Shown here: in pieces, positions 42,101 through 64,000 of the stretch | How the letters are laid out: the number at the start of each line of letters is the position of its first letter | Numbering within the stretch: position 1 is the stretch's first letter | Source of the DNA: Candidatus Multivoradales bacterium | Lineage (GTDB): Bacteria > Acidobacteriota > Thermoanaerobaculia > Multivoradales > JAHEKO01 | DNA length: 64,000 nt | Assembly (NCBI GenBank): GCA_965212505.1 | Contig: OZ243123.1 | Coordinates: 2,766,796-2,830,795, forward strand | Direction: 5' to 3' | Notes under the pieces: model-generated | What the model saw: the letters and a program-made list of their open reading frames with translations, nothing else | What the model was told of the DNA's origin: nothing | The model's database searches: none | Translations under genes and position numbers: made by a program

Positions 42101-44427
42101 AAGGCGGTATCCCACCGGTGGCGGCGCTTCGAGCGCTCCTGGAGGCAGCGGCCGATGCCAACGACGCCCTCCGCGGCAGCGACCTCGCCGACCGGGTGAG
42201 GTTCGACAGGATCGAACTGATCGAGATCCACCAGGATCGCGCCGTACGCACCGCGAAGCAGCTGCACGACCTGGCACGGCAGAAGAGTCTCAGAGAACGC
42301 TTCGACCTCTCGACCTGGCACGTTCAGCCGGGTCGCGGCGGCTTCCACCGCATCGCGCCCCGCGACGATGCGGCCTGGTGGGACCGCCTCCAGATCAGCG
42401 AGCGCGAACGGGACGGCGTTCTGGAGTTCGTCTCGCTCACCGGAGGCACCGCCGGCGCACGGGCCTACGATCTGCCCACCCAGCGAACGAGCATCGATGC
42501 CTTCCTGAGCCGCGCCGTCCGCACGATCCACTCCGACGAGCGACTCGCGAAGACCCTGTTCCAACTCCTCGTCCCCAATCAGATCAAGGTTGCCGCGCCC
42601 GAGGAGCGCGACCTCGTGCTCGTCGTCGACGAAGCTGCAGCTCGCTATCCGTGGGAACTCCTTCAGGACGCCTCAGACAAGGCCAAGCCCTTGAGCGTTC
42701 AGGCCGGCATGATCCGCCAGATGAAGAAGTCGAGCTTCCGCGAGAACCCGCGCTTCTCGGCCGACCTCAGCGCCTTCGTCGTTGGCGACCCGCCGACAGA
42801 CGACTTCGCCAAGCTTCCCGGAGCCGCGGCCGAAGCCGAAGCCGCTGCGGCCGCACTCGAGGGCTCCGGATTTCAAGTCGAAAAGCACGTCCAGCAAGGC
42901 TTCCAGAACGTCTTGACCGGGCTGTTTGCGCATCCCTACCGAGTGCTGCACCTCGCCGGACACGGCGTCTTCGAACACGTGAGGAAGGACCCCGCACCCG
43001 GTTCCGCCGAACAGAAGGTCACCGGCATGGTGCTGAGCGACGACGTGTTTCTCACCCCGGCGGAGATCAACCAGATGCTGATCGTCCCGGAGCTGGTCTT
43101 CATCAACTGTTGCTACCTTGGGCAGGCCGGTTCACCAGGCCGTCATGGAGATCGTGATCGGTACCACCACCTGGCCGCCAACCTCGGTACGCAGCTCATC
43201 CAGATGGGCGCTCGCGCGGTGATCGCCGCCGGCTGGGCGGTCGAGGACAACGCCGCCTCGGACTTCGCCGGCACCTTCTATCGAGAGATGCTCGCCGGAG
43301 CCCGTTTCGGCCAGGCCGTGAAGACCGCACGCGAGGAGACCTACGACGCACATCGCGCCACCAACACCTGGGGCGCCTACCAATGTTACGGCGACCCGGA
43401 CTACGCCCTTCTTCCCAATCGCCGCTCGGGCAGAGCGCGAGATCCCAACCTTCGTGCGGTCGTCGAGGAAGCGGTGCTCGAACTCGGCAACCTGGCGACG
43501 AAAGCTAGCAAGAGCACGGACGAGGAGCTGGACCATCTCAAGCGACGCATCGACGAACTGTCTGACAGCCTGCCGGCAAGCTGGCTAAAGGACGCTCGAC
43601 TCTTGGAGGCGCTCGGAAAGGCGTACGGCGAGGTCAGGATGTTCAAGCGAGCGGTGGACTACTACGAGCAAGCTCGCACTCGGGAAACGGCGACACTCTC
43701 GGTCAAGTCGCTCGAGCAGCTAGCAAACCTCCGCGGCAGATGGTCAGTCGACATTTGGAAGCAAGCGTCGCGAGGCGTCGAGTCCCGCGATGCGAGCCCA
43801 CGCAGGGTGATCCAGCAGGCGCACCAGGAGATCGAGACCCTGCTCAGTTTCGGAGAGACTCGAGAGCGCTACTCACTCCTGGGTTCCGCCAGGAAGCGTC
43901 TGGCCTGGATCGAGACTGGAGCAGCTCGAGACCGGGCTCTCGAAGGGATGCGCGAAGCCTACGAAAAGGCCGAGAGCCTGGGCCGAGACAAAGAGGGCTT
44001 TCTCTACCTCTACCCGGCACTGAACGCCCTCGCAGCGCGAGTCCTGATCCATGCTCGGGGAACGGGCAGGCGCCTGCCCGACCTCGACCAGAAGCTCGAC
44101 GAGATCGAGAAGTCGATCGGAGTCACTCCGAGCGAGGCGCCGTTCTTCGACGAGATTGGGCGCGTCGACGTCCAGTTGATGCGGGCGATCGGTCACAACA
44201 ACCTGGGCCCGGACGAACGGGAGCGCCTCGCGCTCGCGTACCAGGAAGCCCAGCAGAAAGGTAAGGGCACGCCGAAGCAGTGCAGCTCGGTCCGGGAGCA
44301 CCTCGAGTTCCTCTACGAGGTGCTCGGTGAGGAAACCGGACGCATGCGCAAGACGCGTCGGCGTGAGCTGCAGCGAGGTCTGTCGGTGCTCTTGCGAGCG
44401 CTCCAGGCGAGTCCAGCCGGCTCATGA
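39124..44427 (+). CDS. giant multidomain protein (1767 aa): two lipase-like alpha/beta-hydrolase domains, a central unknown domain, a CHAT (caspase-like) protease domain and a C-terminal helical repeat region
   Basis: Strong GAGGAGGGG RBS. Domain 1: LLIFLHGTAST…LVSHSRGGLV. Domain 2: VFLVPGIMGS…YDWRRS…IVAHSMGGLLS…LGTPNGGS (PGAP1/LCAT-like). CHAT domain: VLHLAGHG…FINCCYLGQ…GARAVIAAGWAVEDNAA…YREM. No signal peptide. Confidence 0.75.
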   Translation: MTTLRAPGRRDESLKVLRSEVAEALGGAKVHDAVRVESTRADEPPHEVRNVSDAQIVEIELEGGLRQFLRLDQFREDYGIDASRDDSGALEIPPRIGRQERSRGIASDIALKAFRLIDVPLEEGAARAVAAHFESKLSQGLRRWHADGALDEEPITSPGDLPADEPLLIFLHGTASTTLGSFDALRSESTDIWRQLRDEYDDRILGFEHPTLTSSPIDNVIKLLEALPSQARLHLVSHSRGGLVGELLCRSRVLRSGSSSNRPFDKADFAQFGEPKYQEQEKALKRLDALLREKQPRVERFVRVACPTQGTVLLAKRLDRAFSLLVNALTKTTGLDKVFLVDFATSLAMATAKERTNPETLPGIEAMVPDSALVKVLNRADIEVEADLSVIAGDIEGEGVWQRLKVFATDLFYWQDHDLVVHTQSMYGGGPRSSGARKAFEQGSHVDHFSYFRNKSSADKIHWGLRHDQGDDGDFSPLVGPAPEPIHLSALRSGEARQTVFLVPGIMGSHLSVGDERIWIDIKEIAKGRLSRLKASALGVKPDGLVERSYKALAEHLAKRYDVVLFPYDWRRSLLEEGRRLATEVDDRLRGSALPVSIVAHSMGGLLSRAMIAEREDVWGHLVERGGRLVMLGTPNGGSHTISSVLLGRDRMVRNLARLDFKNDRMEVLDIVRRFRGLLELLPSETEPHDYLSIDRWRELHQTWDQKWLPPDAPDLESAARLREALSNPATIAPENMSYIAGKAPATPISVEIDAEAKGKKRIRLMATEEGDGRVPWSTGRLPGVGTWYMDVKHGALASDSEGFDAIVDLVETGNTDRLSTTPAVVRGSTEPFEMLEEEAPAYPDEAELEGSALGFDPRAASKRTVHRIKVTVTHGDVRFSKHPVLVGHYEDDSIVGAEWALNGALDGRLQRRRDFGLYPGRIGSTELFLKPGGEPPGAIVVGLGPVGELSPGELRGTLASGLTHFAIESAELRPDISFHALTATSILVGSGQGGIPPVAALRALLEAAADANDALRGSDLADRVRFDRIELIEIHQDRAVRTAKQLHDLARQKSLRERFDLSTWHVQPGRGGFHRIAPRDDAAWWDRLQISERERDGVLEFVSLTGGTAGARAYDLPTQRTSIDAFLSRAVRTIHSDERLAKTLFQLLVPNQIKVAAPEERDLVLVVDEAAARYPWELLQDASDKAKPLSVQAGMIRQMKKSSFRENPRFSADLSAFVVGDPPTDDFAKLPGAAAEAEAAAAALEGSGFQVEKHVQQGFQNVLTGLFAHPYRVLHLAGHGVFEHVRKDPAPGSAEQKVTGMVLSDDVFLTPAEINQMLIVPELVFINCCYLGQAGSPGRHGDRDRYHHLAANLGTQLIQMGARAVIAAGWAVEDNAASDFAGTFYREMLAGARFGQAVKTAREETYDAHRATNTWGAYQCYGDPDYALLPNRRSGRARDPNLRAVVEEAVLELGNLATKASKSTDEELDHLKRRIDELSDSLPASWLKDARLLEALGKAYGEVRMFKRAVDYYEQARTRETATLSVKSLEQLANLRGRWSVDIWKQASRGVESRDASPRRVIQQAHQEIETLLSFGETRERYSLLGSARKRLAWIETGAARDRALEGMREAYEKAESLGRDKEGFLYLYPALNALAARVLIHARGTGRRLPDLDQKLDEIEKSIGVTPSEAPFFDEIGRVDVQLMRAIGHNNLGPDERERLALAYQEAQQKGKGTPKQCSSVREHLEFLYEVLGEETGRMRKTRRRELQRGLSVLLRALQASPAGS

Positions 44428-44466: not shown

Positions 44467-46560
44467 CTACGCCGCCTTGCGTAGCGCGTCTCGCACGACG
44501 TCGAGAACGTCTCTGAGTTCAGCGAGTTCTGCGTCGGAGAGCCGGCGCTCGGCGAAGCTCTCCTCGATGTAGAGGCGGACGACGCGGCGAGTCTCCTCGG
44601 CGGCGTCGGGGCACGAGGCGAGTACCCGGCGCTCGACGTCGACCGGGCCGAGTGTTTCGGGCTGTCGCTCGAGTTCGGTGCTCCGCCGTACCAGTTCGCT
44701 GCGCAGCATGCGATAGGCGGCGGTTGCCGTCCAAGGGGTACGGGCCCGCCAGAGCCACCAGAGACCAAGGAGAGCAACCAATGCCGTCACCAACCACCGC
44801 CACGTCTCCGGCGGGGCGTTCTCGAGCGCGCCAGTCTCGGCCGCATCGGCGGCGACGGCGGCGTCCGCCTCAGACACCAACTCGTCCTCCCCGTCGAACC
44901 ACCCACGAATGCCCGAGAGGAAATCGCGCGCCCGCACGAGGAAATCGAGCTGATCGAAGAAGCCGAAGGTCAGCACATATCGATCCCAGCGGAAGAGCAC
45001 GTAGTCGTACGCCTGACTGAAGAACTGGAGCATGCCGCCGTCACCCACCTGGGGACGACCGACCGGAGGCGTCGGGTCGAAGACGCTCCACTCCTGACCG
45101 TCGACCATCGCTTCGACCCAGGCGTGAGCGTTGGTCTGGCGCACGATGTAGTAGCCCTCGAGCGGGTTGAACTCGGCTCCCAGATAGCCGCTCACCATCC
45201 TTGCGGGAATCCCCTGAGACCGGAGGAGCAGCACCATCGCGGTGGCGAAGTACTCGCAATGGCCCGACTTCTCTTCGAAGAGGAACTCCTCGATCGGGTT
45301 CTGCTGATCGCGCACTCCGAGCTCGAGCGTGTAGCTGTGCTCGCTCATCAGGTACCGCTCGAGACGCTCGGCGCGCACCCGAATCTCACCATCGCCCATG
45401 ACGTTGCCGGCCAGGGTGCGCATGCGTTCCGAGACCGCGGAGTCGTCGAGGTCCAGCTGCGAGGCGGGCGTCTCGAGCCGGACGGTCGGCCGATCGTCCC
45501 GCGCCAGGCCCACCTTGAAGTCGAAGGTTGTCGTCGGCGGCACCGGCAGGAAGACAACGCCGCTGTCGTCGAGCTGAACCGACGGGACCCAGAGGTCGAA
45601 CGCCAGGGCATTGGTGGGCAGCAGAAGCTCCCGCCCACCCTTGCTCTGCCAGACCTCGAGCCAACTTCCCGCCGAGCCCTCCCCCAGCCGGAAGAAGCCG
45701 TCCGGGCCCCGATCGAGTGGGGTCGAACTCCGTTGGCCGCGCAGCCACGCATTGCGCTGGAAGCGCCCGTAGGTCGCCGCCTTGAAGCGCATCTCGTCGG
45801 CCGCGATCTCGGGGCCCTGCTGAGAGAACCGAAGGACAACCGATCGCCCCGTCCGTACCGAGCCGATGGTGTCGAGGGTCAGCCCTCCCGCAAAGCCGCC
45901 TCCGGCACCACCCGAGGCGCTGCCCACTCCGGGGCCAAACAGGTATGGCTGCCGCAGTCGGGGCAAGAACGCGAACAGTGGGATCGAAGAGAGCAGAACC
46001 AGCAGACCCACGGCACCGATGAAGCGCTTGAGCTTCAGCTCCTGTCGCGACCTCACCATGCCGTGTTCCGCGAGCACCGCGAAACCGGTGAAGCGGATGA
46101 GAACCGTCAAGGCGCCAAAAAGGAAGACCAGCAGATAGATCGCCACCGCCGGGTTGACACTGGTGCCCATGGCGGCCAGGAACAGGAAGAAGATGGCCAG
46201 GAGCGACTGCCAGTAGTCCCGCTCCTGCTTGAGCGAAAAGAGTTTGACCACCAAGGCGAAAAGGATCAGGTGGGTCAACGAGCGCATCAACTGCTGGTGC
46301 ATCCACCAGGTCGACATCTCGTACGCCAGAACCGGTAGGTAGAGGAGACCGAGAACGTTCATGACCCAGGGCCGCAGCGGGCTGTAGGTCGCGCTCAAGA
46401 CACGCACCAGGAAGAGCGCCGTCACCAGCGTGAACGCACTTACCGAAAGCCAGCCGATGACCCCGTTGAAGGGCAACGGTAGCGGCGCCAGAAGCGCCAA
46501 CACGCCCAGCATCAGACGCTTCTCGCTCGTGAAGGCGACCGACGACGTCGATGCGCTCAT
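44467..46560 (-). CDS. transglutaminase-like membrane protein (TgpA family; DUF3488 TM domain + transglutaminase core)
   Basis: 697 aa. N-terminal ~6 TM helices. Transglutaminase core with catalytic Cys: EEKSGHCEYFATAMVLLLRSQGIPARMVSGY. Confidence 0.75.
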   Translation of the reverse strand: MSASTSSVAFTSEKRLMLGVLALLAPLPLPFNGVIGWLSVSAFTLVTALFLVRVLSATYSPLRPWVMNVLGLLYLPVLAYEMSTWWMHQQLMRSLTHLILFALVVKLFSLKQERDYWQSLLAIFFLFLAAMGTSVNPAVAIYLLVFLFGALTVLIRFTGFAVLAEHGMVRSRQELKLKRFIGAVGLLVLLSSIPLFAFLPRLRQPYLFGPGVGSASGGAGGGFAGGLTLDTIGSVRTGRSVVLRFSQQGPEIAADEMRFKAATYGRFQRNAWLRGQRSSTPLDRGPDGFFRLGEGSAGSWLEVWQSKGGRELLLPTNALAFDLWVPSVQLDDSGVVFLPVPPTTTFDFKVGLARDDRPTVRLETPASQLDLDDSAVSERMRTLAGNVMGDGEIRVRAERLERYLMSEHSYTLELGVRDQQNPIEEFLFEEKSGHCEYFATAMVLLLRSQGIPARMVSGYLGAEFNPLEGYYIVRQTNAHAWVEAMVDGQEWSVFDPTPPVGRPQVGDGGMLQFFSQAYDYVLFRWDRYVLTFGFFDQLDFLVRARDFLSGIRGWFDGEDELVSEADAAVAADAAETGALENAPPETWRWLVTALVALLGLWWLWRARTPWTATAAYRMLRSELVRRSTELERQPETLGPVDVERRVLASCPDAAEETRRVVRLYIEESFAERRLSDAELAELRDVLDVVRDALRKAA

Positions 46561-47555
46561 CGCTGCCCCCCGGTCATCGCAGCGCGGAACTCGAGCGGCG
46601 AGGGTTCGGGGCTCTCGAGCGGCCGGCGCTCCGACGGGCGCGCCTGGATCAGGGCCAGCTCCTCCAGGATTCGGAGTCGCTGCGCTTGTCCGCGCCCGAA
46701 CGGAACGATGCCCTCTCGAGTCACCAGCTGTACCTCGTGCCCGCGCTCCAGATGCTGTTCCGCTGCGCTCGCCGCCTCGCTCACCAACCGCTCGAACCGC
46801 AGTTCGGCGGAACGCTCGGAGAGCTCACCGACGGCATTGTCGAACACGATCGAGAGGCGCTCACCATGCTCCGCCTCGCGCTCCATGTAGACCATGCGCC
46901 CGGTGCGCGCGCTCTGCTTCCAGTGAATCCCGCGCGGATCGTCGCCGGGGCGGAACTCTCGCAGAGTCAAGAGCTCATGACCCCACCCCGCCTTCTGTGA
47001 CGGCTGTTCTCCGGCGCGTCCGGTCGAGGTCGGGCGCGCGTCGGCCGGTTGAATCTCGGGGAAGACCAACACCTCGAGGTCGACCGGCAGCCGCATCGAC
47101 TTGAAGATCAAGCCGAGCGGAAAGATCGAGGCCAGACGCACGCTCGAAACGGTGTGCCGGCCGCGCTCCTTGAAGAGCGTCGCCATTTGCAGCTGCCGGG
47201 TGCCACGCCGTTCGAGGCGTGGTACCAGGCGCTCCTCGCCTTCGCCGGCGGTGCTCAGGACGAGCAGACGCTTCGCCCACCAGCGGTCGGTGCTCGTCAA
47301 CTCGACCGAGAGGGAAAACGGCTGGCGGGCGTAGATCTCGTCCGGTCCGCGCACCTCGGCGCTCACATACTGCAGATTCCGGCGCGAGATCACCCCCGAG
47401 ACCGCCAACAGGCCCAGCAGCATGGCCTCGACTAGATAGAGAGCATTGTTACCGGTGTTGGCGGCCGCCAGCCCCACTACGAGAGTGAGAAAGGCGTACC
47501 AGAACCCCACCTTGGTGATGCGGATCCGGTCGAAGGCAGCGCGTCGGGAAGCCAT
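46557..47555 (-). CDS. DUF58 domain protein (vWA-like), MoxR partner
   Basis: 332 aa. Two N-terminal TM helices, then the DUF58 signature (…REFRPGDDPRGIHWKQSARTGRMVYMERE…). 4-nt overlap with tgpA. Confidence 0.75.
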   Translation of the reverse strand: MASRRAAFDRIRITKVGFWYAFLTLVVGLAAANTGNNALYLVEAMLLGLLAVSGVISRRNLQYVSAEVRGPDEIYARQPFSLSVELTSTDRWWAKRLLVLSTAGEGEERLVPRLERRGTRQLQMATLFKERGRHTVSSVRLASIFPLGLIFKSMRLPVDLEVLVFPEIQPADARPTSTGRAGEQPSQKAGWGHELLTLREFRPGDDPRGIHWKQSARTGRMVYMEREAEHGERLSIVFDNAVGELSERSAELRFERLVSEAASAAEQHLERGHEVQLVTREGIVPFGRGQAQRLRILEELALIQARPSERRPLESPEPSPLEFRAAMTGGQR

Positions 47556-47588
47556 GATTCGAGCAGGGTCGCGCCCGGCGGGCGCGTT

Positions 47589-48578
<990 letters not shown>

Positions 48579-55528: not shown

Positions 55529-55576
55529 CGTCTCCGCCTCGCGTGCTATCATTTGCTAGCATCCAGGAGGCTAGAG

Positions 55577-55795
55577 ATGGCAACCGTACAGATCAACGCC
55601 AGAGTCGACCCGGCCCTGAAGAAGGCCGTCGACGAGTACTGCCGCTCCCGCGGCATCGTTCTGAACCACTTCGTGCAGGAGGCGCTCATCGATCGCCTCG
55701 AGGAGCTCGAGGACGTAGAGGATCTGAAGGCGATAAGGCACGAGCCGACGCGCCCGCTTTCCGAGCTGCTCGCCGAGCTCGAGCTCGATGCCTAG
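55577..55795 (+). CDS. type II antitoxin (ribbon-helix-helix/RelB-DinJ-like)
   Basis: 72 aa. AGGAGG RBS. N-terminal RHH-like beta strand (ATVQINARVDPALKKAVDEY), acidic C-terminus. Overlaps the toxin gene by 8 nt. Confidence 0.55.
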   Translation: MATVQINARVDPALKKAVDEYCRSRGIVLNHFVQEALIDRLEELEDVEDLKAIRHEPTRPLSELLAELELDA

Positions 55796-56063
55796 CACGA
55801 GTGACCGCAAGTACGAGATCGAGATCTCCAGAAGCGCTGAGAAGCAGCTAGGCAAGCTGCCCAGGGGCGACCTGGAGCGCATCGTCCGGGCCATCCGGGC
55901 TCTCGCTCACGAACCGCGACCAAAGGGCTCGCGCAAACTGTCCGGCTACGACGACGTTTTTCGGATTCGGGTCGGGCGTTTTCGGGTTCTGTACAGCGTC
56001 GAGAGCGGCAGGCTCATCATCATTGTCCTCAAGGTCGGCCATCGCCGCGAGGTCTATCGTTGA
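55788..56063 (+). CDS. RelE/ParE-family type II toxin (mRNA interferase)
   Basis: 91 aa. RelE/StbE pattern (YEIEISRSAEKQLGKLPRGDLERIVRAIRALAHEPRP…RIRVGRFRVLYSVESGRLIIIVLKVGHRREVY). Confidence 0.7.
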   Translation: MPSTSDRKYEIEISRSAEKQLGKLPRGDLERIVRAIRALAHEPRPKGSRKLSGYDDVFRIRVGRFRVLYSVESGRLIIIVLKVGHRREVYR

Positions 56064-56529: not shown

Positions 56530-58320
56530 CTACCGACCAAGCATCTCGAGCAGCCCGATCGTGAACCAGGGCACGTAGGTGATCAGCAGTACACCGATAC
56601 CCAGAATGATCAGCATCGGCACCGCCGCCCGCCAGATCGCCAGCAACGGACGTTCGAACCGGTAGGCCGCGAGGAACAGATTCAACCCGACCGGCGGCGT
56701 CAAATACCCGAGCTCGAGGTTGGCGACGAAGATGATCCCGAGGTGCACCGGGTGGATGTCGAAGGCCATGCCGAGCGGCACGATCAGCGGCACGACCACT
56801 ACGATTGCCGAGAAGACATCCATCATGCAGCCGACGAGGAGCAGGAGGATGTTGAGCGCCAGCAGGAAGACCCACTTCGACTCGACGTTCTCCTGGGCCC
56901 ACTCGACCAGCTTCGCCGGGACCTGGGCGTCGACCAGGTAGCTCGTGAGCCCCTGGGCGACCCCGAGGATGATCAGAACGCCGCCGACGAGAACGACGCA
57001 CTCGGTGAAGACCTTCCGCAGCTCTCCCTTGAAAGGAATGTCGCGGTGGATCAGGACCTGGCTCACGAGGGCGTAGAGCGCGGTCAGCGCGGCGGCCTCG
57101 ACCAGGGTGGCGAGGCCGCTGAAGATCGCGCCGAGCGCCAGAAACGGCAGGAAGAGCTCGAACTTGGCGGTCCAAACAGCACGAAGCGCCTCGCGCACGG
57201 CGAAGGTCTGGCGCTCCACGTCCCCACGCATCGCCTCGCGCACTCCCCACCCGGCAACGAGTGCGATCATCAGAATGCCGGGCACCAGACCGCCGATGAA
57301 CAGGTCTTCGATCGGGATCGAGGCGACGATGCCGTACAAAATCAGCGGCAGCGCCGGCGGGAAGAGTAGTCCGAGCGAACCCGAAGCCGTGAGCAGGCCC
57401 AGCGAGAAGCGGTCCGAGTAGCGGTCAGCTCGGAGCGCCTGGTAGAGCAGGCCACCAAGCGCCAGGATGGTGACGCCTGAGCCGCCGGTGAAGACGGTGA
57501 AGAACGCGCACAGCACCGCGGTAACGACCGCGGTGCCGCCGGGCATCCAACCGAACCAGGCCCGGAACACCCGCAGCAGGCGGTTCGACGCCTCTCCCTG
57601 GGCGAGAGCGAAGCCGGCCAGGGTGAAGAGCGGGATGGCGGCCAGGAACGGCGAGACCGCCAGCCGGTAGGTCTCGGCCGGCACGGCGGCGGCGGGAACA
57701 CCATCGGACAAGAAGAGAAAGAGGGCGAAGCCGCCAAGGGCCACGAAGATCGGCCCTCCGAGGAGCGTCGCAATCACGATCAGCACGAGCCAGGGCCAGG
57801 CCGACTTGAACTCGAGCCAGGTCTGGTACTGGCCCAGCACAACGCCAACAACGAGGCCGAGCCCCGCGACGGCGCGGCCGAGCCAACCCTCCGAGGCGCG
57901 CCAGACCAGGCGGAGTGCGATCAGAGCAAAGGCCACAGGAATCGCCAACTGCCCCACCCAGACCGGGATGCCGCCGGCGATCACCGTCTCCGCCTGCCGC
58001 TCGATGACAATCAGATCGATCGCCGCCCGACAGAGAAGCATCGAGACGCCGGCGCCGACCGCCGCCGAGACCACCTTCGAGCGATCACGCAACTTGCCTT
58101 CCGGCATCAGCTCACCGGTAGCGAGTACGAGGAGCTTGCCCTCGCGCGCAGCCAGCGCGGCGCCGAGGAAACCGACCCAGAGGGTCAGATGCTGAACGTA
58201 GGCCAGCGAACCGGGGATACCGATTCCGAAGAACTTCCGAGCGACCACCTCGCCGAGGGGAAGGATGATCATCGCGGCCAGAACGGCGGCCGCAAACCCC
58301 TCTTCGAAGCGGCGCAGCAA
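56530..58320 (-). CDS. TRAP transporter fused DctQ-DctM permease
   Basis: 596 aa. N-terminal small-permease-like segment (~160 aa, 4 TM) fused to the DctM-type large permease. Confidence 0.8.
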   Translation of the reverse strand: MLRRFEEGFAAAVLAAMIILPLGEVVARKFFGIGIPGSLAYVQHLTLWVGFLGAALAAREGKLLVLATGELMPEGKLRDRSKVVSAAVGAGVSMLLCRAAIDLIVIERQAETVIAGGIPVWVGQLAIPVAFALIALRLVWRASEGWLGRAVAGLGLVVGVVLGQYQTWLEFKSAWPWLVLIVIATLLGGPIFVALGGFALFLFLSDGVPAAAVPAETYRLAVSPFLAAIPLFTLAGFALAQGEASNRLLRVFRAWFGWMPGGTAVVTAVLCAFFTVFTGGSGVTILALGGLLYQALRADRYSDRFSLGLLTASGSLGLLFPPALPLILYGIVASIPIEDLFIGGLVPGILMIALVAGWGVREAMRGDVERQTFAVREALRAVWTAKFELFLPFLALGAIFSGLATLVEAAALTALYALVSQVLIHRDIPFKGELRKVFTECVVLVGGVLIILGVAQGLTSYLVDAQVPAKLVEWAQENVESKWVFLLALNILLLLVGCMMDVFSAIVVVVPLIVPLGMAFDIHPVHLGIIFVANLELGYLTPPVGLNLFLAAYRFERPLLAIWRAAVPMLIILGIGVLLITYVPWFTIGLLEMLGR

Positions 58321-58322
58321 AC

Positions 58323-59339
58323 TCAGCGAGCGTCTCCGGCGGCGCTCTCTCGCCGATAGGCTTCGCGCGCGGCGAGCACCAGGTCGAACGCTTCAGCTGG
58401 AATGCGAACACCGCGCAGCGAGGTCTCGAACTCCTTCGCCAACTCCTCCCAATTCGCCACGTTGGCCGCGGTGTGCACCGTGAGCCCACGCTTGGACATC
58501 TCGGCAATGGCCGTCGCGTCCTGCTTGGGAATCTCACGCTCGAGCTGACGCTCCATCTCGACGGCCGCGGCCAGCATCGCCTTCTTGTCGGTGTCGGAGA
58601 TCCGGTTCCAGATGCGGCTCGAGACCACCGTGGCACCGACCAAAGGCGCGAGGCCGAGCTCCATCATGTGCGGCGTCTGACGAAACCACTGCAGCGAGAG
58701 CGCTGCGAGGGGCGTTGTCGGGATGACGTCGATCATGCCGGTCTGGAGCCCGGTCATGATGTCGGTCATCGAAAGCGCCACCGGCTGGAAGCCTTCGCGC
58801 TTCCACCACTGAAGCATCTGGCCGTCGCCGGCCGAGACGAAGAGCTTGAGCCGGCGTAGGTCTTCGACCGTCTCGATCGCCTCGGTCGAAAACACCTGAG
58901 CCCATCCTGCGTGGCCCCACTGAATCAGCTCGTAGCCCTTGGCGCGCGCCCGACGTTTCATCTCGGGCTCGACCGCTCGCAGAACGTGGAAGAATTCCTC
59001 GTAGGAGTCGTAGAAGAAGGGAATCGCGAGCGCCTCGAAGGCCGGGTCGATGTCGATGAGACCGCTGACGGTGATCGTGCCGGCATGCAGCTGACCGATC
59101 CGCATCTTCCGCAGCACGTCCGGTTCGTCGCCGGCGACGCCTCCCGGGTAGATCCGCAGCTCGACGCGTCCCTGGCTCTCGCGCTTCCAGGTGGAGCCCA
59201 TGCTCTTGAGCGCCTTGTCCCAAACAGAGCCGTCAGGAACGAGCGTGGCGAGTTTGATGGTGACGTCTGCTGCAGCGACGGGAGCGGCGGTGCTCACGCA
59301 GAGCACCCCTACGAGACAGGTACTAATCAGGAATCGCAT
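58323..59339 (-). CDS. TRAP transporter substrate-binding protein (DctP family)
   Basis: 338 aa. Signal peptide. DctP-like pattern (IKLATLVPDGSVW…RVELRIYPGGVAGDE…). Confidence 0.8.
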   Translation of the reverse strand: MRFLISTCLVGVLCVSTAAPVAAADVTIKLATLVPDGSVWDKALKSMGSTWKRESQGRVELRIYPGGVAGDEPDVLRKMRIGQLHAGTITVSGLIDIDPAFEALAIPFFYDSYEEFFHVLRAVEPEMKRRARAKGYELIQWGHAGWAQVFSTEAIETVEDLRRLKLFVSAGDGQMLQWWKREGFQPVALSMTDIMTGLQTGMIDVIPTTPLAALSLQWFRQTPHMMELGLAPLVGATVVSSRIWNRISDTDKKAMLAAAVEMERQLEREIPKQDATAIAEMSKRGLTVHTAANVANWEELAKEFETSLRGVRIPAEAFDLVLAAREAYRRESAAGDAR

Positions 59340-59383
59340 CTACCGCTTCCAACAAGCACGCCCGGCCCTCGAATTCCGATAGG

Positions 59384-60307
59384 TCATTCGATGAACAGGT
59401 CGTCGACCCGGTCGAGCAGCCGCTGCGCGCGGCGCTGCGTGATCAGGTTGGCGAGCCGCGACGACGGTTCGTCGTCGGGATCGATCGCCAGAGCTCGCTC
59501 CAACATGTTTTGAAACTCGGCACGGTCCTGCTGCGCGACGGCGACCCCTTCGGCCCAGCTCACGAACGGGCCTGCCTTCTTTCCGTCCGACAGCTCGACC
59601 GCACGGTCGAAGTGCTCCCGGGCCCGCTCCACTGAGCCACCCATCGCCGCCGGCAGCGATTCGAGCGCCATCATCACCTCGTGCACGCTCCCCTTGTCGT
59701 AGCTCTCGTCGAGCTCGAGTGTGCGGCGAACGAGGAAGCGCACCGCCTCGAGGTCGATGGTGATCTCGGGCCGATCCGAGCCGACCGAGATGGCGCTCCC
59801 CCACGCCGCCCCGGTCCAGAAGAGGAGCGGCACGTCTTCGACCTCGAAATCAGCAAGCGCCGCCTGCGGCTCGACCTCCAGGCGTCGCCGAACGCCGGGT
59901 GAGCGGAGCTCGAGGGCGCGGAGACAGTAGTCGCGGGCACGAAGGAACATCTTGAGCGCCCGGTCGTAGCCGGCCAGCGCCGCCTCATAGTCCTCGTCTT
60001 CGAGCGCCTCGGCCTCGACCCGAACAAACGCCGCCGCGTATTGCGTGAATCCCTGGCAGGTACTCAACAGGAGACCGGCGTGTTCTGGCTGATCGGCCAA
60101 GAGTGTCTCCATCGTCTTGAGCGCAAACGGCAGAGCGTCGCGCACCAACTCGGGATCTTCGTCTGAGGCGAAGACGTCGCCGCTCGACGCGAGCGAGTTG
60201 GCGAGCGCGTTGACCGCGAGACTCCGAATCGAGCAGGCACTCGACCAAACGGCAAGCACGCCTACCAGGAGCAGGCGGACCAGGGTCGTTCGCGAGCGGC
60301 TTGTCAT
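59384..60307 (-). CDS. TatT-like TPR lipoprotein associated with TRAP transporter (TPAT system)
   Basis: Internal ATG gives a lipoprotein signal (LLLVGVLAVWSSACS). All-helical TPR-like composition. Located immediately upstream of the dctP-dctQM genes on the same strand. Confidence 0.55.
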   Translation of the reverse strand: MTSRSRTTLVRLLLVGVLAVWSSACSIRSLAVNALANSLASSGDVFASDEDPELVRDALPFALKTMETLLADQPEHAGLLLSTCQGFTQYAAAFVRVEAEALEDEDYEAALAGYDRALKMFLRARDYCLRALELRSPGVRRRLEVEPQAALADFEVEDVPLLFWTGAAWGSAISVGSDRPEITIDLEAVRFLVRRTLELDESYDKGSVHEVMMALESLPAAMGGSVERAREHFDRAVELSDGKKAGPFVSWAEGVAVAQQDRAEFQNMLERALAIDPDDEPSSRLANLITQRRAQRLLDRVDDLFIE

Positions 60308-60429
60308 GGGTCGACGGAGGTCAATGTAGCGACCGGAGGTGAGCCGGTCAAGTTCTCGACCGTTCTTCCTCGCCATCCGAGTCGCGAGTCGCCCTCGTCT
60401 GCGATACCGTCACGCCAGGTCTTCAAAGC

Positions 60430-61143
60430 ATGTCCAAGAAAAAGGGTACGCAGTCGTGTCTGCTGATCGGCGTTGGGTGCCTGATCGCCGTGGCGATCTT
60501 GGCAATCGTGGTCGGGAGCCTGATGTTCTACGGCTTCAGAAAGGCTCGTCAGCTCGAAGAGACCATGAAAGACCCCGAAACCCGCACCAGCGAGGCGCTC
60601 GAGCTGCTCCCGACCGAGTCGCTTCCCGAGGGCTATTACGCCGTGGCGGCGTTCTCCGTGCCGTTCCTGATGGACACGATTGTCCTCGCGGATCAGGAGC
60701 CGACGGACGACATCGAGTCGTCTCTTCATGCCGGCACGCACCGGTTTGTCTTCACGCGCACTCGCCTCTTCGGCGACCAGGAGGAACAGCTGAAGCTCCT
60801 GCTCGAGGGTGAGATCCACCGCGGAGAGTGGGAGAACCGGGCCCCGGTGCGCTTCGAGAACGATCGCTTCCTGGTCGCCGGGTCGGCCGTCGAGGAAGGA
60901 CGCACCCTACGCTGGGCAGCACACCTGGGCCGCTCCAGCGGCCCGGTCGACGAAGCGATCGGCCTCCGATCGACGATCGTCGTCGACTGTCCCGAGCCCC
61001 GCGGCCGAACGCGTATCGGCTTCTGGATGGGCCCTGCGCCGGACGGCGTCGAGTCCGAAACCGACATCGATCTGACCGGCACCGTCGGCGACGGTGAGCG
61101 CATCCAGGAGTTCATGCGCTACCTCGACGTCTGCGCCCGCTGA
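60430..61143 (+). CDS. membrane-anchored protein of unknown function
   Basis: 237 aa. Single N-terminal TM helix: SCLLIGVGCLIAVAILAIVVGSLMFYGF. First gene of a three-gene plus-strand cluster. Confidence 0.4.
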   Translation: MSKKKGTQSCLLIGVGCLIAVAILAIVVGSLMFYGFRKARQLEETMKDPETRTSEALELLPTESLPEGYYAVAAFSVPFLMDTIVLADQEPTDDIESSLHAGTHRFVFTRTRLFGDQEEQLKLLLEGEIHRGEWENRAPVRFENDRFLVAGSAVEEGRTLRWAAHLGRSSGPVDEAIGLRSTIVVDCPEPRGRTRIGFWMGPAPDGVESETDIDLTGTVGDGERIQEFMRYLDVCAR

Positions 61144-61178
61144 CACCTCCTAGGCTACAATTCCTTCAGATATCCACC

Positions 61179-62006
61179 GTGGCCAGAATCTACCTGTCGT
61201 CGACGTACCGGGACTTGAGGGAGCACCGCGAGGCGGTCTATCGCGCGCTCCGTCAGATGCGTCATGACGTCATCTCGATGGAGGACTACACCGCCGCCAG
61301 CCGGCCACCGCTCGAGAAGTGTCTCGAGGACGTGGCCGAATGCGATGTCTACGTCGGCATCTTCGCCTGGCGCTCCGGGTACAAACCGCCGGGCGAGGAG
61401 AGGTCGATCACCGAGCTCGAATTCCGTCAGGCGGTGTCGACCGGCAAAGAGTGTCTGATCTTCCTGCTCGAATCGGACGCCCCCTGGCCACCCAAGATGA
61501 TGGACGAGGATCGCTCCGAGATCGAGGCGCTTCGCAACGAGCTCTCGCGCGACTACCTGATCGACTTCTTCACTTCGCCTGAGGAGCTGGCGACCAATGT
61601 CAGCGTCGCCGTCGCAAACACCGCCGGCACTGGCGCGATCCCGGTCCAGGAGGAAGAAGCCGACCCGGAAACCCTGCGCTTCTTCGTCCGAAGCCTCAAA
61701 CGCATGACTGACGAGCTCGGCTCTCAGATCAAGCTCTATTCGGCCTCGAGTGTCGCTCTCGTGGCCGTCGGAGGCGGCATCCTCGCCGTCGGCCTGGCGA
61801 TGCAGGCGACAACCTTCGGCGTCGGCGGCGCCTTGATCGGCAGCGCGACGATCTTCCCCATCAACACCATGCTGCACGCCCGCAGAAAGAAGGCCGTTCT
61901 CGACGGCTACCACCACGAGCTGCAGCAGGAGCCACCCGCTGACGAGGCGGTGAGCGCGATCCGGCGCTTCCTGGGCACGCAACTGAAGGGAGGGGCGTTC
62001 GCGTGA
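61179..62006 (+). CDS. DUF4062 domain protein with C-terminal transmembrane hairpin
   Basis: N-terminal ~100 aa (ARIYLSSTYRDLREHREAV…CDVYVGIFAWRSGY…SITELEFRQAVSTGKECLIFLL) fits the DUF4062 pattern. Two predicted C-terminal TM helices (VALVAVGGGILAVGLA; GVGGALIGSATIFPI). Confidence 0.65.
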   Translation: MARIYLSSTYRDLREHREAVYRALRQMRHDVISMEDYTAASRPPLEKCLEDVAECDVYVGIFAWRSGYKPPGEERSITELEFRQAVSTGKECLIFLLESDAPWPPKMMDEDRSEIEALRNELSRDYLIDFFTSPEELATNVSVAVANTAGTGAIPVQEEEADPETLRFFVRSLKRMTDELGSQIKLYSASSVALVAVGGGILAVGLAMQATTFGVGGALIGSATIFPINTMLHARRKKAVLDGYHHELQQEPPADEAVSAIRRFLGTQLKGGAFA

Positions 62007-62989
62007 GCGAAGACGAACGGCTGGACAAGATCTCCGCGATGTTCGCCGACGAGTCGGCGGCGATGCGACGCCGAACGCTCTGGCTGTCGCTCATTCCGAT
62101 CGCGATCGGAGCGATCGTCGTCGTCACCGCGTACCTCGGGGTACAAGACGCACGCGAGCGACGCGACGCTCTCCTCACCGAGCTCGACGAGCTCTTCGCG
62201 CGCCGGGATCAACTCCAAGAAGAGCTCCAGCAGCAGAAGGCGGTCGTCGAGCACGTTCGAGAGAAGCTCCCCGAGACCGAACGCAAGGCGGTCGAACTCG
62301 TGCAGACGGGGCTCGACGCCTACAACAGCAAGGACTACGACACCGCGGTGACCCGGCTCGAGAGCGCGGTCGCCGAGAATCCGAATATGGCAGAAGCGCA
62401 CTTCCGACTCGGGCTTTCGCTCTGGCGCACCGGTCAACAGAAGGAGGCGCTCAAAGAGGTACAGGCCGCGTTCAAGATCGATCCGAGCTACGAGGAGCGG
62501 GCGCGGAAGGACCGGCGGTTCAAAGAACTTTGGGACTACAGCTACGTGGTCGAGGGCGAGAAGAGCGCCGCGACCGCACCCGAGGCGACCGCGATCAAGG
62601 AGGCGCTCGGCAACGCCCGGACGGGAGACTTCGGGAAGGCCGTCGAGTCCTACGACAAGGCGCTCGAGACCAACCCCGAGAACGCTCGCGTCCACGGTTG
62701 GAAGGGCTATTCGCTCTACCGGAAGGGCGACTACAAAGCGGCGATCTCCAGCTACGAAGAGTGCCTCGCCGCCGACCCCTCCCTCGCCGAGTGCCACTAC
62801 AACATGGGGCTCGCGCTCTGGGCGGTCGGCGACAAGCGCGGCGCACAAGCGTCCTTCGAGAAGACCTGGAGTCTCGACCCGTCGTTCCTCGGCAAGGCGC
62901 GACAGGACCCCGCCTTCCGCAAGATCGCCATCGAGCTCGACCCGCGGACACTCCTACGCAAGGAAGGCGGCCGGTCCGGCGGCGGCTAG
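62003..62989 (+). CDS. membrane-anchored TPR repeat protein
   Basis: GTG start overlapping the upstream stop (GTGA). One TM helix (LWLSLIPIAIGAIVVVTAYLG). Coiled-coil segment, then at least 4 TPR units (…AEAHFRLGLSLWRTGQQKEALK…, …AECHYNMGLALWAVGDKRGAQ…). Confidence 0.65.
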   Translation: MSEDERLDKISAMFADESAAMRRRTLWLSLIPIAIGAIVVVTAYLGVQDARERRDALLTELDELFARRDQLQEELQQQKAVVEHVREKLPETERKAVELVQTGLDAYNSKDYDTAVTRLESAVAENPNMAEAHFRLGLSLWRTGQQKEALKEVQAAFKIDPSYEERARKDRRFKELWDYSYVVEGEKSAATAPEATAIKEALGNARTGDFGKAVESYDKALETNPENARVHGWKGYSLYRKGDYKAAISSYEECLAADPSLAECHYNMGLALWAVGDKRGAQASFEKTWSLDPSFLGKARQDPAFRKIAIELDPRTLLRKEGGRSGGG

Positions 62990-64000
62990 CGTGCCGCCTG
63001 CAGCAGGTCGGTTGCGATCGCGCCGGTATCGATCGACGTCGACGCGGTCCCGAACTGGGGGCCGACAAACAGATCCAGCGAGTTTCGGCAGACCACCGCC
63101 GTCACACCGTTTCCGCCGTTGCTGCCCTCGAGCGAGTGCAGCGTGTTGCAGTTGGTCCCGACCGTCGTTCCGCCCTTGGAGAGAAGGGTGCCGAGGGTTC
63201 CTGAAACACGGAACAGAGCAAACCCGTGCTCGAAGAGCGTGCCCTGCACCGGCAAGAACCCGGCCTCGAGGAGCGCCTGGGCCTCAGCGCTCAGCAGGCT
63301 GCCCGTCACCAGCGAATGGAAGAACCGAGCGTAGCTCTCCGGCGTAGCGGTCAACGCGCCGGCGGCACCACCACCGTTGGAGAACAGAATCGGACCGGCG
63401 TCGAAGGTGTCGAGCGCCGGATGACCGTTGATGTCGACCAGTGGGTAGGCCCCGAGGAGGTTCTCGTCAATGCCGTCGGTGGCCCCGGTCGCGATGGCGT
63501 ACTGACTGGCGAGCTTGCCGAGTCGCCGCGGCACCGACAGAGCCAGCTCCATGGGCGCCAACCCCAGCGGCTCGACAATGCGCTCCTCTACCAGCTCATC
63601 AAATGACTTCCCAGAAGCACGCTCGAGAATCAGTCCGACCAACTGGTAGCCGGAGTTCCCGAAGCTCGCCTCGAAGTCTCGCTGTCTCGTCCCGCCGCGC
63701 CGGGCGCCGTTCGCCTTGAGCAGGCCGAGTGCGCTCAAGACCTCGAACGGCTCGTCGACATCGGGCACCGGTAGCCGCTCGAGTCCCAGCGCGTCGAGAA
63801 GATCGCCGAGCAGGTAGTCCACAACGTCCGTGAAGCCGTTGCCGTTCCGATCGACCTCGTTGACGAAGTCCCACAGGCCGTGGTTGCCGTTGAGCAGCTG
63901 GCGAATGGTGATCTTCTTGAGTTTGGGGCACTTGGCGCGCACCTGGACAAACTCGTCGAGCTCGCGGTCGAGTACCAGCACCGTCGCGGGACACAGAGCC
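62986..64000 (-). CDS. beta-lactamase-family serine hydrolase (5' end beyond the window)
   Basis: The ORF is open to the window edge. This is the C-terminal two-thirds of a beta-lactamase/transpeptidase-fold protein (…GNSGYQLVGLILERASG…FSNGGGAAG…). Its stop overlaps the convergent TPR gene by 4 nt. Confidence 0.5.
   Translation of the reverse strand, partial: ALCPATVLVLDRELDEFVQVRAKCPKLKKITIRQLLNGNHGLWDFVNEVDRNGNGFTDVVDYLLGDLLDALGLERLPVPDVDEPFEVLSALGLLKANGARRGGTRQRDFEASFGNSGYQLVGLILERASGKSFDELVEERIVEPLGLAPMELALSVPRRLGKLASQYAIATGATDGIDENLLGAYPLVDINGHPALDTFDAGPILFSNGGGAAGALTATPESYARFFHSLVTGSLLSAEAQALLEAGFLPVQGTLFEHGFALFRVSGTLGTLLSKGGTTVGTNCNTLHSLEGSNGGNGVTAVVCRNSLDLFVGPQFGTASTSIDTGAIATDLLQAAR

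Follow-up and report, generated by a model that had tools for sequence, protein, structure and literature searches.

A membrane-anchored DUF4062/NIR protein and its TPR partner: a conserved two-gene module and candidate abortive-infection system in Candidatus Multivoradales and other uncultured bacteria

The DUF4062 domain has recently been recognised as an anti-phage effector that depletes nicotinamide adenine dinucleotide (NAD+). Osinski et al. described it as a TIR-like NADase and reported the single-protein system Swarozyc (KpSwz), which is activated by the phage portal, and for which activation was proposed to proceed via a pull on helical stalks beneath the TIR-like domain (10.64898/2026.05.01.722283). 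Le Mouellic et al. renamed the domain NIR and reported that an Avs2 protein, Vulcan (NIR-HEAT) and Vesta (NIR plus a phosphatase) deplete NAD+ (10.64898/2026.09.04.749371), and Ibarra-Chavez et al. described the plasmid-borne Evangelion family, in which defence is linked to NAD+ depletion (10.64898/2026.06.25.731849). A conserved glutamate is needed for defence in KpSwz, PsAvs2, Vulcan and Vesta, and Swarozyc, NIR-Avs2, Vulcan and Vesta give glutamate-dependent defence of the abortive-infection type (10.64898/2026.05.01.722283, 10.64898/2026.09.04.749371). The catalytic residues are E97 in KpSwz, E108 in PsAvs2, E98 in Vulcan, E103 in VstA and E87-Y88 in Eva01. According to the 2026 preprints, the same domain is also found in human TEP1. 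The bacterial forms described so far are all soluble and sense cytoplasmic phage proteins or metabolites. Here we analysed a stretch of 64,000 nucleotides of a Candidatus Multivoradales genome (GCA_965212505.1, contig OZ243123.1, positions 2,766,796 to 2,830,795; hereafter the window), in which a DUF4062 protein with a predicted membrane hairpin (gene B) is followed by a gene for a membrane-spanning protein with tetratricopeptide repeats (TPR; gene C).

Gene B (61179-62006, 275 aa) and gene C (62003-62989, 328 aa) are on the forward strand and both start with GTG. The B stop and the C start share four nucleotides (GTGA, 62003-62006), so that the genes are translationally coupled. These two genes and the upstream gene A (60430-61143, forward strand, 237 aa) are real coding genes. 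Their GC contents at the three codon positions (GC1/GC2/GC3 about 0.66/0.45/0.85 in a 65 % GC genome; GC3 of B 0.85) resemble those of the flanking TRAP transporter genes, and the antisense open reading frames (ORFs) overlapping A, B and C do not have this pattern. An earlier note, made from the letters of this DNA, had placed the three genes here and had described B as a DUF4062 protein ending in a two-helix transmembrane hairpin, C as a single-pass protein with a coiled coil and at least four TPRs, and the pair as joined by the GTGA overlap and devoid of an NTPase. All of these features were recovered by the profile searches, hydropathy analysis and structure modelling given below.

On all sequence and fold comparisons B belongs to the DUF4062/NIR domain family and is a predicted NADase. 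Residues 3-85 match Pfam DUF4062 (PF13271) over profile positions 1-82 of 82 with an E-value of 9.8e-23 and 80.6 bits (gathering cut-off 24.7 bits). The alignment and the AlphaFold2 model of B were built on 24 full-length homologues, and the model has a mean predicted local distance difference test score (pLDDT) of 84. It places a TIR-like alpha/beta domain at residues 1-150 (61179-61628, + strand; strands and helices from E3-8 to H134-150), separated by a disordered linker from a long helix that starts at residue 163. When the model was compared with the PDB using Foldseek, nucleoside 2'-deoxyribosyltransferase (8pqt, E = 3e-4) and the RPS4/RRS1 TIR heterodimer (4c6t) were matched, together with TIR-STING, the SARM1 TIR domain, BcmB and DNPH1. 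These are the structural neighbours that the literature gives for DUF4062. In phmmer, B residues 3-185, the stalk included, matched the KpSwz DUF4062 protein (PDB 10wc) with an E-value of 4.2e-5. The deposited 10wc chain is the KpSwz E97A mutant, and its alanine aligns exactly with Glu81 of B (codon GAA, 61419-61421, + strand; motif SITELEF), the predicted catalytic glutamate. Glu81 is invariant in 24 of 24 full-length homologues and is directly followed by an aromatic residue, like the E87-Y88 catalytic motif of Eva01. A MEDY motif is likewise invariant, and in the N-terminal aromatic motif SSTY10xDL (compare F11 of Eva01) residues S7, S8, T9, D12 and L13 are at least 90 % conserved among the same 24 proteins. 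Since Glu81 aligns with KpSwz E97 and these motifs are kept across the homologues, the catalytic equipment of B is intact, and B probably acts as an NADase. No NTPase family was matched in B or C in Pfam or NCBIfam. The suggestion of the earlier note that the pair combines an effector with a sensor has gained strength, because experiments published since then show that DUF4062 depletes NAD+ as an anti-phage effector, and B keeps the catalytic glutamate.

Behind the NADase domain, AlphaFold2 places helices at residues 163-208 and, after a turn, 211-248, and a last helix at 255-270. The first part is a stalk helix (residues 163-189; 61665-61745, + strand) that runs into the first transmembrane helix, carries the conserved motif FYR..L.R...EL.SQIRFY and aligns with the stalk region of KpSwz. 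Next comes a glycine-rich two-helix transmembrane hairpin (residues 189-232; 61743-61874, + strand), which is supported by hydropathy, the helix-turn-helix of the model and the alignment. The two transmembrane helices (about 189-209 and 212-232) are connected by an uncharged turn, contain the glycine-zipper-like motifs GGGILAVG and GVGGALIG, and include the conserved residues G216 and P227. K/R-rich segments border the hairpin on both sides (RSLKR before, RRKK after), and the loop is acidic or neutral among the homologues. Because of these flanks and the uncharged or acidic turn, both ends of the hairpin, and with them the NADase domain, the stalk and the tail, are clearly predicted to be cytoplasmic by the positive-inside rule. 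The helical C-terminal tail (residues 233-275; 61875-62003, + strand; helices to 248 and at 255-270) carries the conserved motif RRKKxLLDGY..EL...PA.EAV.AVRRFL..QL. The stalk, hairpin and tail form a rare module: only 17 clusters were found among 1.84 billion representative proteins, nearly all of them with the architecture of B.

The product of C starts with an amphipathic N-tail (residues 1-24, ending in RRR) and one transmembrane helix (residues 25-47, Kyte-Doolittle 2.24; both at 62003-62143, + strand). In the partner alignment I10, E17, R22 and P32 of C are at least 90 % conserved. Next is a charged helical, coiled-coil-like spacer (residues 48-95; 62144-62287, + strand), which varies in length among the homologues (with long Q-rich insertions in two of the related loci, L016 and L020) and was modelled as one long helix, at low confidence, in the partner of locus L010. 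The remainder is a TPR domain of two blocks (residues 96-310; 62288-62932, + strand), the predicted sensor, in which about 2 + 3 repeats, some five in total, were counted. It is matched by TPR_2 (E = 2.1e-27, four stretches), TPR_11, TPR_16 and TPR_1 in Pfam. Each block is closed by a 'TPR end-of-group' cap (DPS..A..D..F), and for these two caps NCBIfam TPR_END_plus scored 50.3 bits against a cut-off of 32. No phosphatase family was matched in C in Pfam. The N-terminus of C was placed in the cytoplasm because a cluster of R/K residues (RRR) stands directly before the transmembrane helix. Among 15 loci, net charge around this helix favoured the N-in orientation in 12, was tied in three and was reversed in none. 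C is therefore probably oriented N-in/C-out, and its coiled coil and TPRs would then be periplasmic.

When homologues were collected, full-length relatives of B (39-76 % identity in the protein search) were found in about 13 of 185,579 species-representative genomes, and further relatives were obtained from metagenome contigs scanned with an 8-sequence alignment of the transmembrane module. The hosts are Thermoanaerobaculia and other Acidobacteriota, Rhodothermales, Longimicrobiales, Burkholderiales (Rubrivivax, Piscinibacter and others), Anaerolineales and Binatia, and identities between phyla are 45-76 %. The earlier note had proposed looking for homologous pairs kept as neighbours in other genomes, and such pairs recurred throughout: in each of some 27 contig sets from at least six phyla, and so in every locus with downstream sequence, the B homologue has a partner gene behind it. 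The spacing from the B homologue to the partner gene is -4 to +58 nt, and in most cases it is the 4-nt overlap seen in the window (L003-L007, L009, L011, L012, L084, L086 and L087). All partners have the N-tail (consensus D.ITARL..E.ARLRRR), one transmembrane helix and a coiled coil, and the neighbourhoods of the related loci differ from one another and consist mostly of housekeeping genes. The adjacency of B and C is not due to chance, because a partner with the same N-tail and transmembrane signature follows B in every locus with downstream sequence. That two unrelated membrane protein genes merely overlap here has next to no probability; its one support is that TPR proteins are common, and it conflicts with the recurrence of the partner signature in unrelated neighbourhoods of at least six phyla. 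A mirror-tree style correlation between the divergence of B and C was moderate (Spearman 0.4-0.6), which fits co-inheritance and is not discriminating. The pair is rare and moves as a unit across phyla. A profile search with the N-terminal 110 residues of the partner against 5.8 billion proteins returned nothing at E <= 0.001.

The related loci vary in both proteins. The best conserved part of the partner is the N-tail with the transmembrane helix, and the TPR domain of C is the least conserved part of the pair (39 % mean identity vs 61 % for the NADase domain). In five loci (L017, L102, L103, L008 and L010) the TPRs are replaced by an outer alpha/beta domain of about 100 residues with the motif RVYLHI...ELR[FY]...[FY]E[IFL]W[FL]. 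Three of these loci (L017:10001-11379, L102:6001-7456 and L103:5206-6641) encode a short subfamily of B (about 245 aa) with DUF4062 and two transmembrane helices, a more hydrophobic hairpin and no tail; in the others the alpha/beta domain partner stands beside a long B protein (L008:2308-2982 and L010:10818-11507). Two cysteines are conserved in the alpha/beta domain of three homologues, a weak hint of a periplasmic location. Pfam gave only chance-level matches of LytR_C and SPOR for this domain (E about 0.2), a homology search with it returned the query only, and the single-sequence AlphaFold2 model of the L010 partner with this domain was unreliable (pLDDT 47). The type of N-tail tracks the subtype of B (long or short), and the outer domain is exchanged independently. 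Given an N-tail tied to the subtype of B, and an outer domain that is exchanged and varies most, we propose that the tail and transmembrane helix contact B and that the outer domain is a replaceable sensor, for which this pattern would be expected. Residues 1-47 of C are thus the predicted interface with B, and B and C presumably touch physically. Free-standing proteins of about 117 aa that consist of stalk, hairpin and tail only, without DUF4062, were also found (P0122, P0125, P0128, P0131 and P0134). At L090:242-1302, L091:145-1205 and L092:162-1021 such a protein is followed by a transmembrane/coiled-coil/TPR partner of about 229 aa, and no DUF4062 ORF was present upstream of these minimal pairs.

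B and C were compared with the described DUF4062 systems. Swarozyc resembles B in its N-terminal DUF4062 NADase domain, the aligned catalytic glutamate and a helical stalk proposed to pass on the activating signal. However, Swarozyc is a single soluble protein whose own C-terminal AUX domain binds the phage portal, whereas in B the hairpin and tail replace AUX and sensing would be delegated to a separate bitopic protein encoded by an obligate partner gene. The match of B to KpSwz stops at residue 185 of B (residue 193 of 326 in the chain) and does not extend to AUX. NIR-Avs2 and other STAND-TPR proteins, and Vulcan, join the same effector domain to helical-repeat sensors (TPR, HEAT), and in Vesta the domain works in a two-gene operon. 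Unlike these, the pair has no STAND NTPase, HEAT fusion or phosphatase partner, and the predicted sensor and effector are separate membrane proteins. Vesta is defined by the ligand-binding C-terminus of VstA and the alkaline phosphatase VstB, and C is instead a transmembrane/coiled-coil/TPR protein. The Evangelion proteins are, like B, small proteins built on a DUF4062 core with the aromatic N-terminal motif and a glutamate followed by an aromatic residue; Eva01 further requires a short divergent auxiliary region for function. They are single-gene, plasmid-borne and soluble, and enriched on mobile elements such as plasmids, in contrast to B with its hairpin, its obligate partner and no full-length plasmid copy. 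The pair falls outside Swarozyc, Vesta, Vulcan, Evangelion and NIR-Avs, as it lacks the accessory parts that define them. The main texts of the three preprints make no mention of a form anchored in the membrane or partnered with a TPR protein (10.64898/2026.05.01.722283, 10.64898/2026.09.04.749371, 10.64898/2026.06.25.731849): 'transmembrane' occurs in none of them, 'membrane' once in one of them as a general effector target, and 'TPR' in that same one as figure-legend abbreviations for STAND-type proteins only.

Two more distant comparisons concern the membrane. Kiwa (KwaA/KwaB), Zorya (ZorAB + ZorCD) and SNIPE share the working logic that an inner-membrane part facing the periplasm senses the envelope and activates a cytoplasmic effector (PMC13434031). 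They have no sequence relationship to B or C in PADLOC, their effectors bind or cut DNA rather than acting as NADases, and KwaA is tetrameric and ZorAB stator-like. The two-transmembrane (2TM) effectors of CBASS, Pycsar and Panoptes (Cap14 Saf-2TM, OptE/2TMbeta) resemble B in having a two-helix membrane module and a cytoplasmic domain in an abortive-infection setting. Unlike B, they are switched by cyclic nucleotides from a partner cyclase and kill by membrane disruption; the pair has no cyclase, and the cytoplasmic domain of B is itself the predicted enzyme. By analogy only, the layout recalls animal Toll-like receptors, with a solenoid-repeat sensor outside, a membrane span and a TIR-type domain inside. 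Toll-like receptors are single chains with leucine-rich repeats and a scaffolding TIR domain, whereas B and C are two chains with TPRs (predicted outside) and a predicted catalytic TIR-like domain, and no homology is implied beyond the TIR-like fold.

The remark of the earlier note that it knew of no such arrangement among described defence systems stands for the architecture, and PADLOC-DB v2 gave no match for A or B and two chance-level matches for C (E = 0.013 and 0.021). It no longer stands for the effector domain, which has now been described. The further idea that the pair arose by a split of a DUF4062-STAND-TPR protein was not borne out. Outside the B family, the nearest DUF4062 domains (57-66 % identical) occur in fusion with iSTAND, STAND-type ATPase, TPR-S, beta-helix and lectin-like modules, which shows the domain shuffling usual for conflict systems, and the outer domain of the partner is interchangeable. 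With C-terminal modules this varied, a simple split of one DUF4062-STAND-TPR gene is not supported, and the pattern looks more like modular shuffling.

The module is most likely an anti-phage system of the abortive-infection type. For the full proposal, a two-protein conflict module of the inner membrane in which the partner senses and the NADase of B causes abortive infection, we see about an even chance. It builds on what was computed here, namely the domain identities, the conservation of the catalytic glutamate, the strict co-occurrence and coupling of the two genes, the modular sensor and the patchy distribution across phyla. In such a module B would be an NAD+ glycohydrolase that faces the cytoplasm and is anchored in the inner membrane through its hairpin. 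C would be the sensor or regulator, its N-tail and transmembrane helix packing against the hairpin, stalk and tail of B, and its coiled coil holding out an exchangeable ligand-binding domain (TPR in the window), most likely in the periplasm. At rest the NADase would be kept inactive. If the TPR domain then binds a trigger, or the envelope is disturbed, the transmembrane helix of C may shift, and helix-helix contacts would re-align the stalks of B so that the NADase domains assemble as an active oligomer, the route proposed for KpSwz. NAD+ would be hydrolysed and growth would stop before the phage multiplies. Stalk-borne activation is proposed because the stalk is the suggested route in KpSwz and the stalk of B is continuous with the first transmembrane helix in the model. 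In a more specific version the pair is a trans-envelope immune receptor: the periplasmic repeat or alpha/beta domain would recognise phage components or damage to the cell wall, and contacts between the membrane helices would turn on the NADase in the cytoplasm. This version is possible, although we regard it as doubtful.

Several observations weigh against this proposal. Enrichment in defence islands, which the earlier note had proposed as a check, was not found, and the flanks are for the most part genes of metabolism or transport. Both in the window and in most of the related loci, the immediate neighbours of the pair are housekeeping genes, among them those for a TRAP transporter, a sulfate permease, a TonB receptor and a DAHP synthase. 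Defence-like genes stand near the pair only in L003 (patatin, TIR_2/TPR-S), L010 (kinase-TIR) and L090 (HsdR, antitoxin). In PADLOC few of 128 neighbour ORFs and none of 10 large immediate flanking genes matched, a sample too small for statistics; for NIR genes in general, about 20 % were reported near known defence genes vs 3.9 % expected (10.64898/2026.09.04.749371). The B family is absent from IMG/VR viral contigs and from phage records, and no full-length B was found on plasmids, where records cover at most 49 % of B (the DUF4062 domain only). The closest relative, L001 (76 % identity, a metagenome-assembled genome of Acidobacteriota), has the pair between the same TRAP and beta-lactamase genes as the window, which makes an Acidobacteriota origin of the window most likely. 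The pair thus stands at the same chromosomal position in two related Acidobacteriota and is stably inherited there. The orientation of C has the positive-inside rule as its sole basis, and in the C of the window the K/R counts are tied (3 vs 3), net charge alone favouring N-in. Finally, the NADase is not indispensable to whatever the core pair does, because the NADase-less versions keep the hairpin protein and the TPR partner.

Some of these points would fit a non-immune module for envelope-to-cytoplasm signalling or stress, in which an extracytoplasmic cue received by the partner modulates NAD+ or a nucleotide in the cytoplasm and leads to dormancy or a signalling product. The housekeeping and signalling neighbours (TRAP; GGDEF/HD-GYP/STAS genes in the L102 and L103 neighbourhoods; an amidase gene overlapping the operon in L086), the lack of association with mobile elements (IMG/VR, phages, plasmids) and the synteny kept in related genomes all agree with it. 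We nevertheless consider it unlikely, given that extreme rarity and a patchy spread over phyla, together with high identity, usually mark conflict genes that move horizontally rather than core physiology, that the bacterial DUF4062 systems tested to date (Swarozyc, NIR-Avs2, Vulcan, Vesta and Evangelion) are all anti-phage, and that the pair encodes no downstream receptor for a signalling product. The existence of pairs without the NADase leads to another explanation, in which the hairpin itself kills: triggered B hairpins would oligomerise and permeabilise the inner membrane, with DUF4062 as an accessory second effector or regulator. The proteins of about 117 aa keep their TPR partner without DUF4062 (one of them close to a gene for type I restriction), glycine-zipper-like motifs and the conserved G216 and P227 occur in the hairpin, and membrane-disrupting 2TM effectors are established in other systems (PMC13434031). 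Yet the catalytic glutamate and the DUF4062 motifs are kept in 24 full-length members, which points to an active enzyme kept by selection; none of the known 2TM effector families in PADLOC matches the hairpin by sequence; and the short subfamily keeps the NADase despite a different hairpin and no tail. A killing hairpin as the primary effector is accordingly judged quite unlikely.

The role of C could also be a different one, as in a toxin/antitoxin-like pair where C is chiefly a membrane inhibitor or anchor and B is activated by loss or degradation of C rather than by sensing through the TPRs. Tight translational coupling would fix the stoichiometry of such a pair, and the N-tail and transmembrane helix of the partner are better conserved than its outer domain. 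There is also a precedent in VstB of Vesta, which is dispensable for defence and was likened to MisB of Metis, a protein that prevents toxicity in uninfected cells (10.64898/2026.09.04.749371). However, large exchangeable outer domains are hard to explain for a pure inhibitor, and the effector-first gene order is not the usual antitoxin-first order, so that only a slim chance is left for this explanation.

The earlier note had also reported a third membrane-anchored protein upstream. Gene A does lie 35 nt upstream of B on the same strand and has an N-terminal transmembrane anchor (Kyte-Doolittle 3.14), but it is not part of the system. It had no match in Pfam, NCBIfam, PADLOC, PHROG or PDB and no tblastn match in 83 related loci, and in L001, where the synteny is shared, its place is taken by another gene that is encoded on the other strand. 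A as a third component of the module was rejected on the absence of a homologue in the related loci and its replacement in L001; it is a genuine gene, an orphan neighbour outside the conserved module. To the left of A is a divergent TRAP transporter operon (TAtT, DctP, DctQM; 56530-60376, - strand), and to the right of C a convergent gene of the beta-lactamase family (62986-63981). A scan of 60200-63200 for promoters and terminators found no convincing signals on the + strand. In the A-B gap, TACAAT at 61156-61161 (+ strand), 17 nt 5' of the GTG of B, is a near-consensus -10 hexamer and might give B and C their own promoter with a very short leader; the consensus scan called no full promoter there. 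No obvious Shine-Dalgarno sequence precedes B.

The conflict-type genes nearest to the pair in the window are a ParE pair 5 kb off and a CHAT/TPR-S protein 17 kb off. The former is an overlapping pair of small genes between an Smr gene and the TRAP operon (55553-56063, + strand, about 5 kb from B and C). Its downstream member (91 aa) is a ParE-family toxin (E = 1.9e-12), and the upstream member (80 aa), with weak HicB and DUF6290 matches below the cutoff, may be the antitoxin; L001 has a histone-deacetylase-family gene at this place. The latter (39124-44427, + strand, about 17 kb upstream) is a protein of 1767 aa with DUF7379 repeats, a lipase/esterase-like region, a CHAT protease and a TPR-S sensor domain, an architecture of the conflict-system type. 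A row of genes for a MoxR-type AAA_3 ATPase, a DUF58 protein and a transglutaminase-like TgpA membrane protein (44467-48578, - strand) is a common conserved cluster, seemingly unrelated to the pair.

Among the related loci, L003 has genes for a patatin-like phospholipase and a TIR_2/TPR-S protein (L003:12131-14620) 3-5 kb downstream of the pair. On a Longimicrobiales chromosome, a protein of 494 aa with an N-terminal Ser/Thr kinase-like and a C-terminal TIR-like part (L010:12901-14385) is encoded 1.4 kb downstream, and two very large ORFs upstream in that locus (1155 and 1537 aa) had no Pfam match. The neighbours of the minimal pair in L090 include an antitoxin and type I restriction HsdR. In L086 a gene for an Amidase_3 protein of 170 aa (N-acetylmuramoyl-L-alanine amidase; L086:8768-9280) shares 38 nt with the end of the TPR partner gene, the single case tying the module to a cell-wall enzyme.

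The effector class was already known; what is new here is a membrane-tethered two-gene NIR form with an exchangeable sensor. Because its members are few and occur only in uncultured environmental lineages, the practical impact of the family is limited for now. With 275 + 328 residues, B and C make a small, tractable system for the crossing of a signal through the membrane to a TIR-type enzyme, for which the natural variants without the NADase or with a swapped sensor would be useful. If the proposed module is confirmed, NAD+ depletion could be triggered from the envelope, which would join the membrane-sensor defences (Kiwa, Zorya, SNIPE) to NADase effectors. And if the tentative trans-envelope receptor is true, the pair would be the first NAD+-depleting defence triggered from the periplasm and a two-chain bacterial counterpart of the Toll-like receptor layout, with the repeat sensor outside and the TIR-type domain inside.

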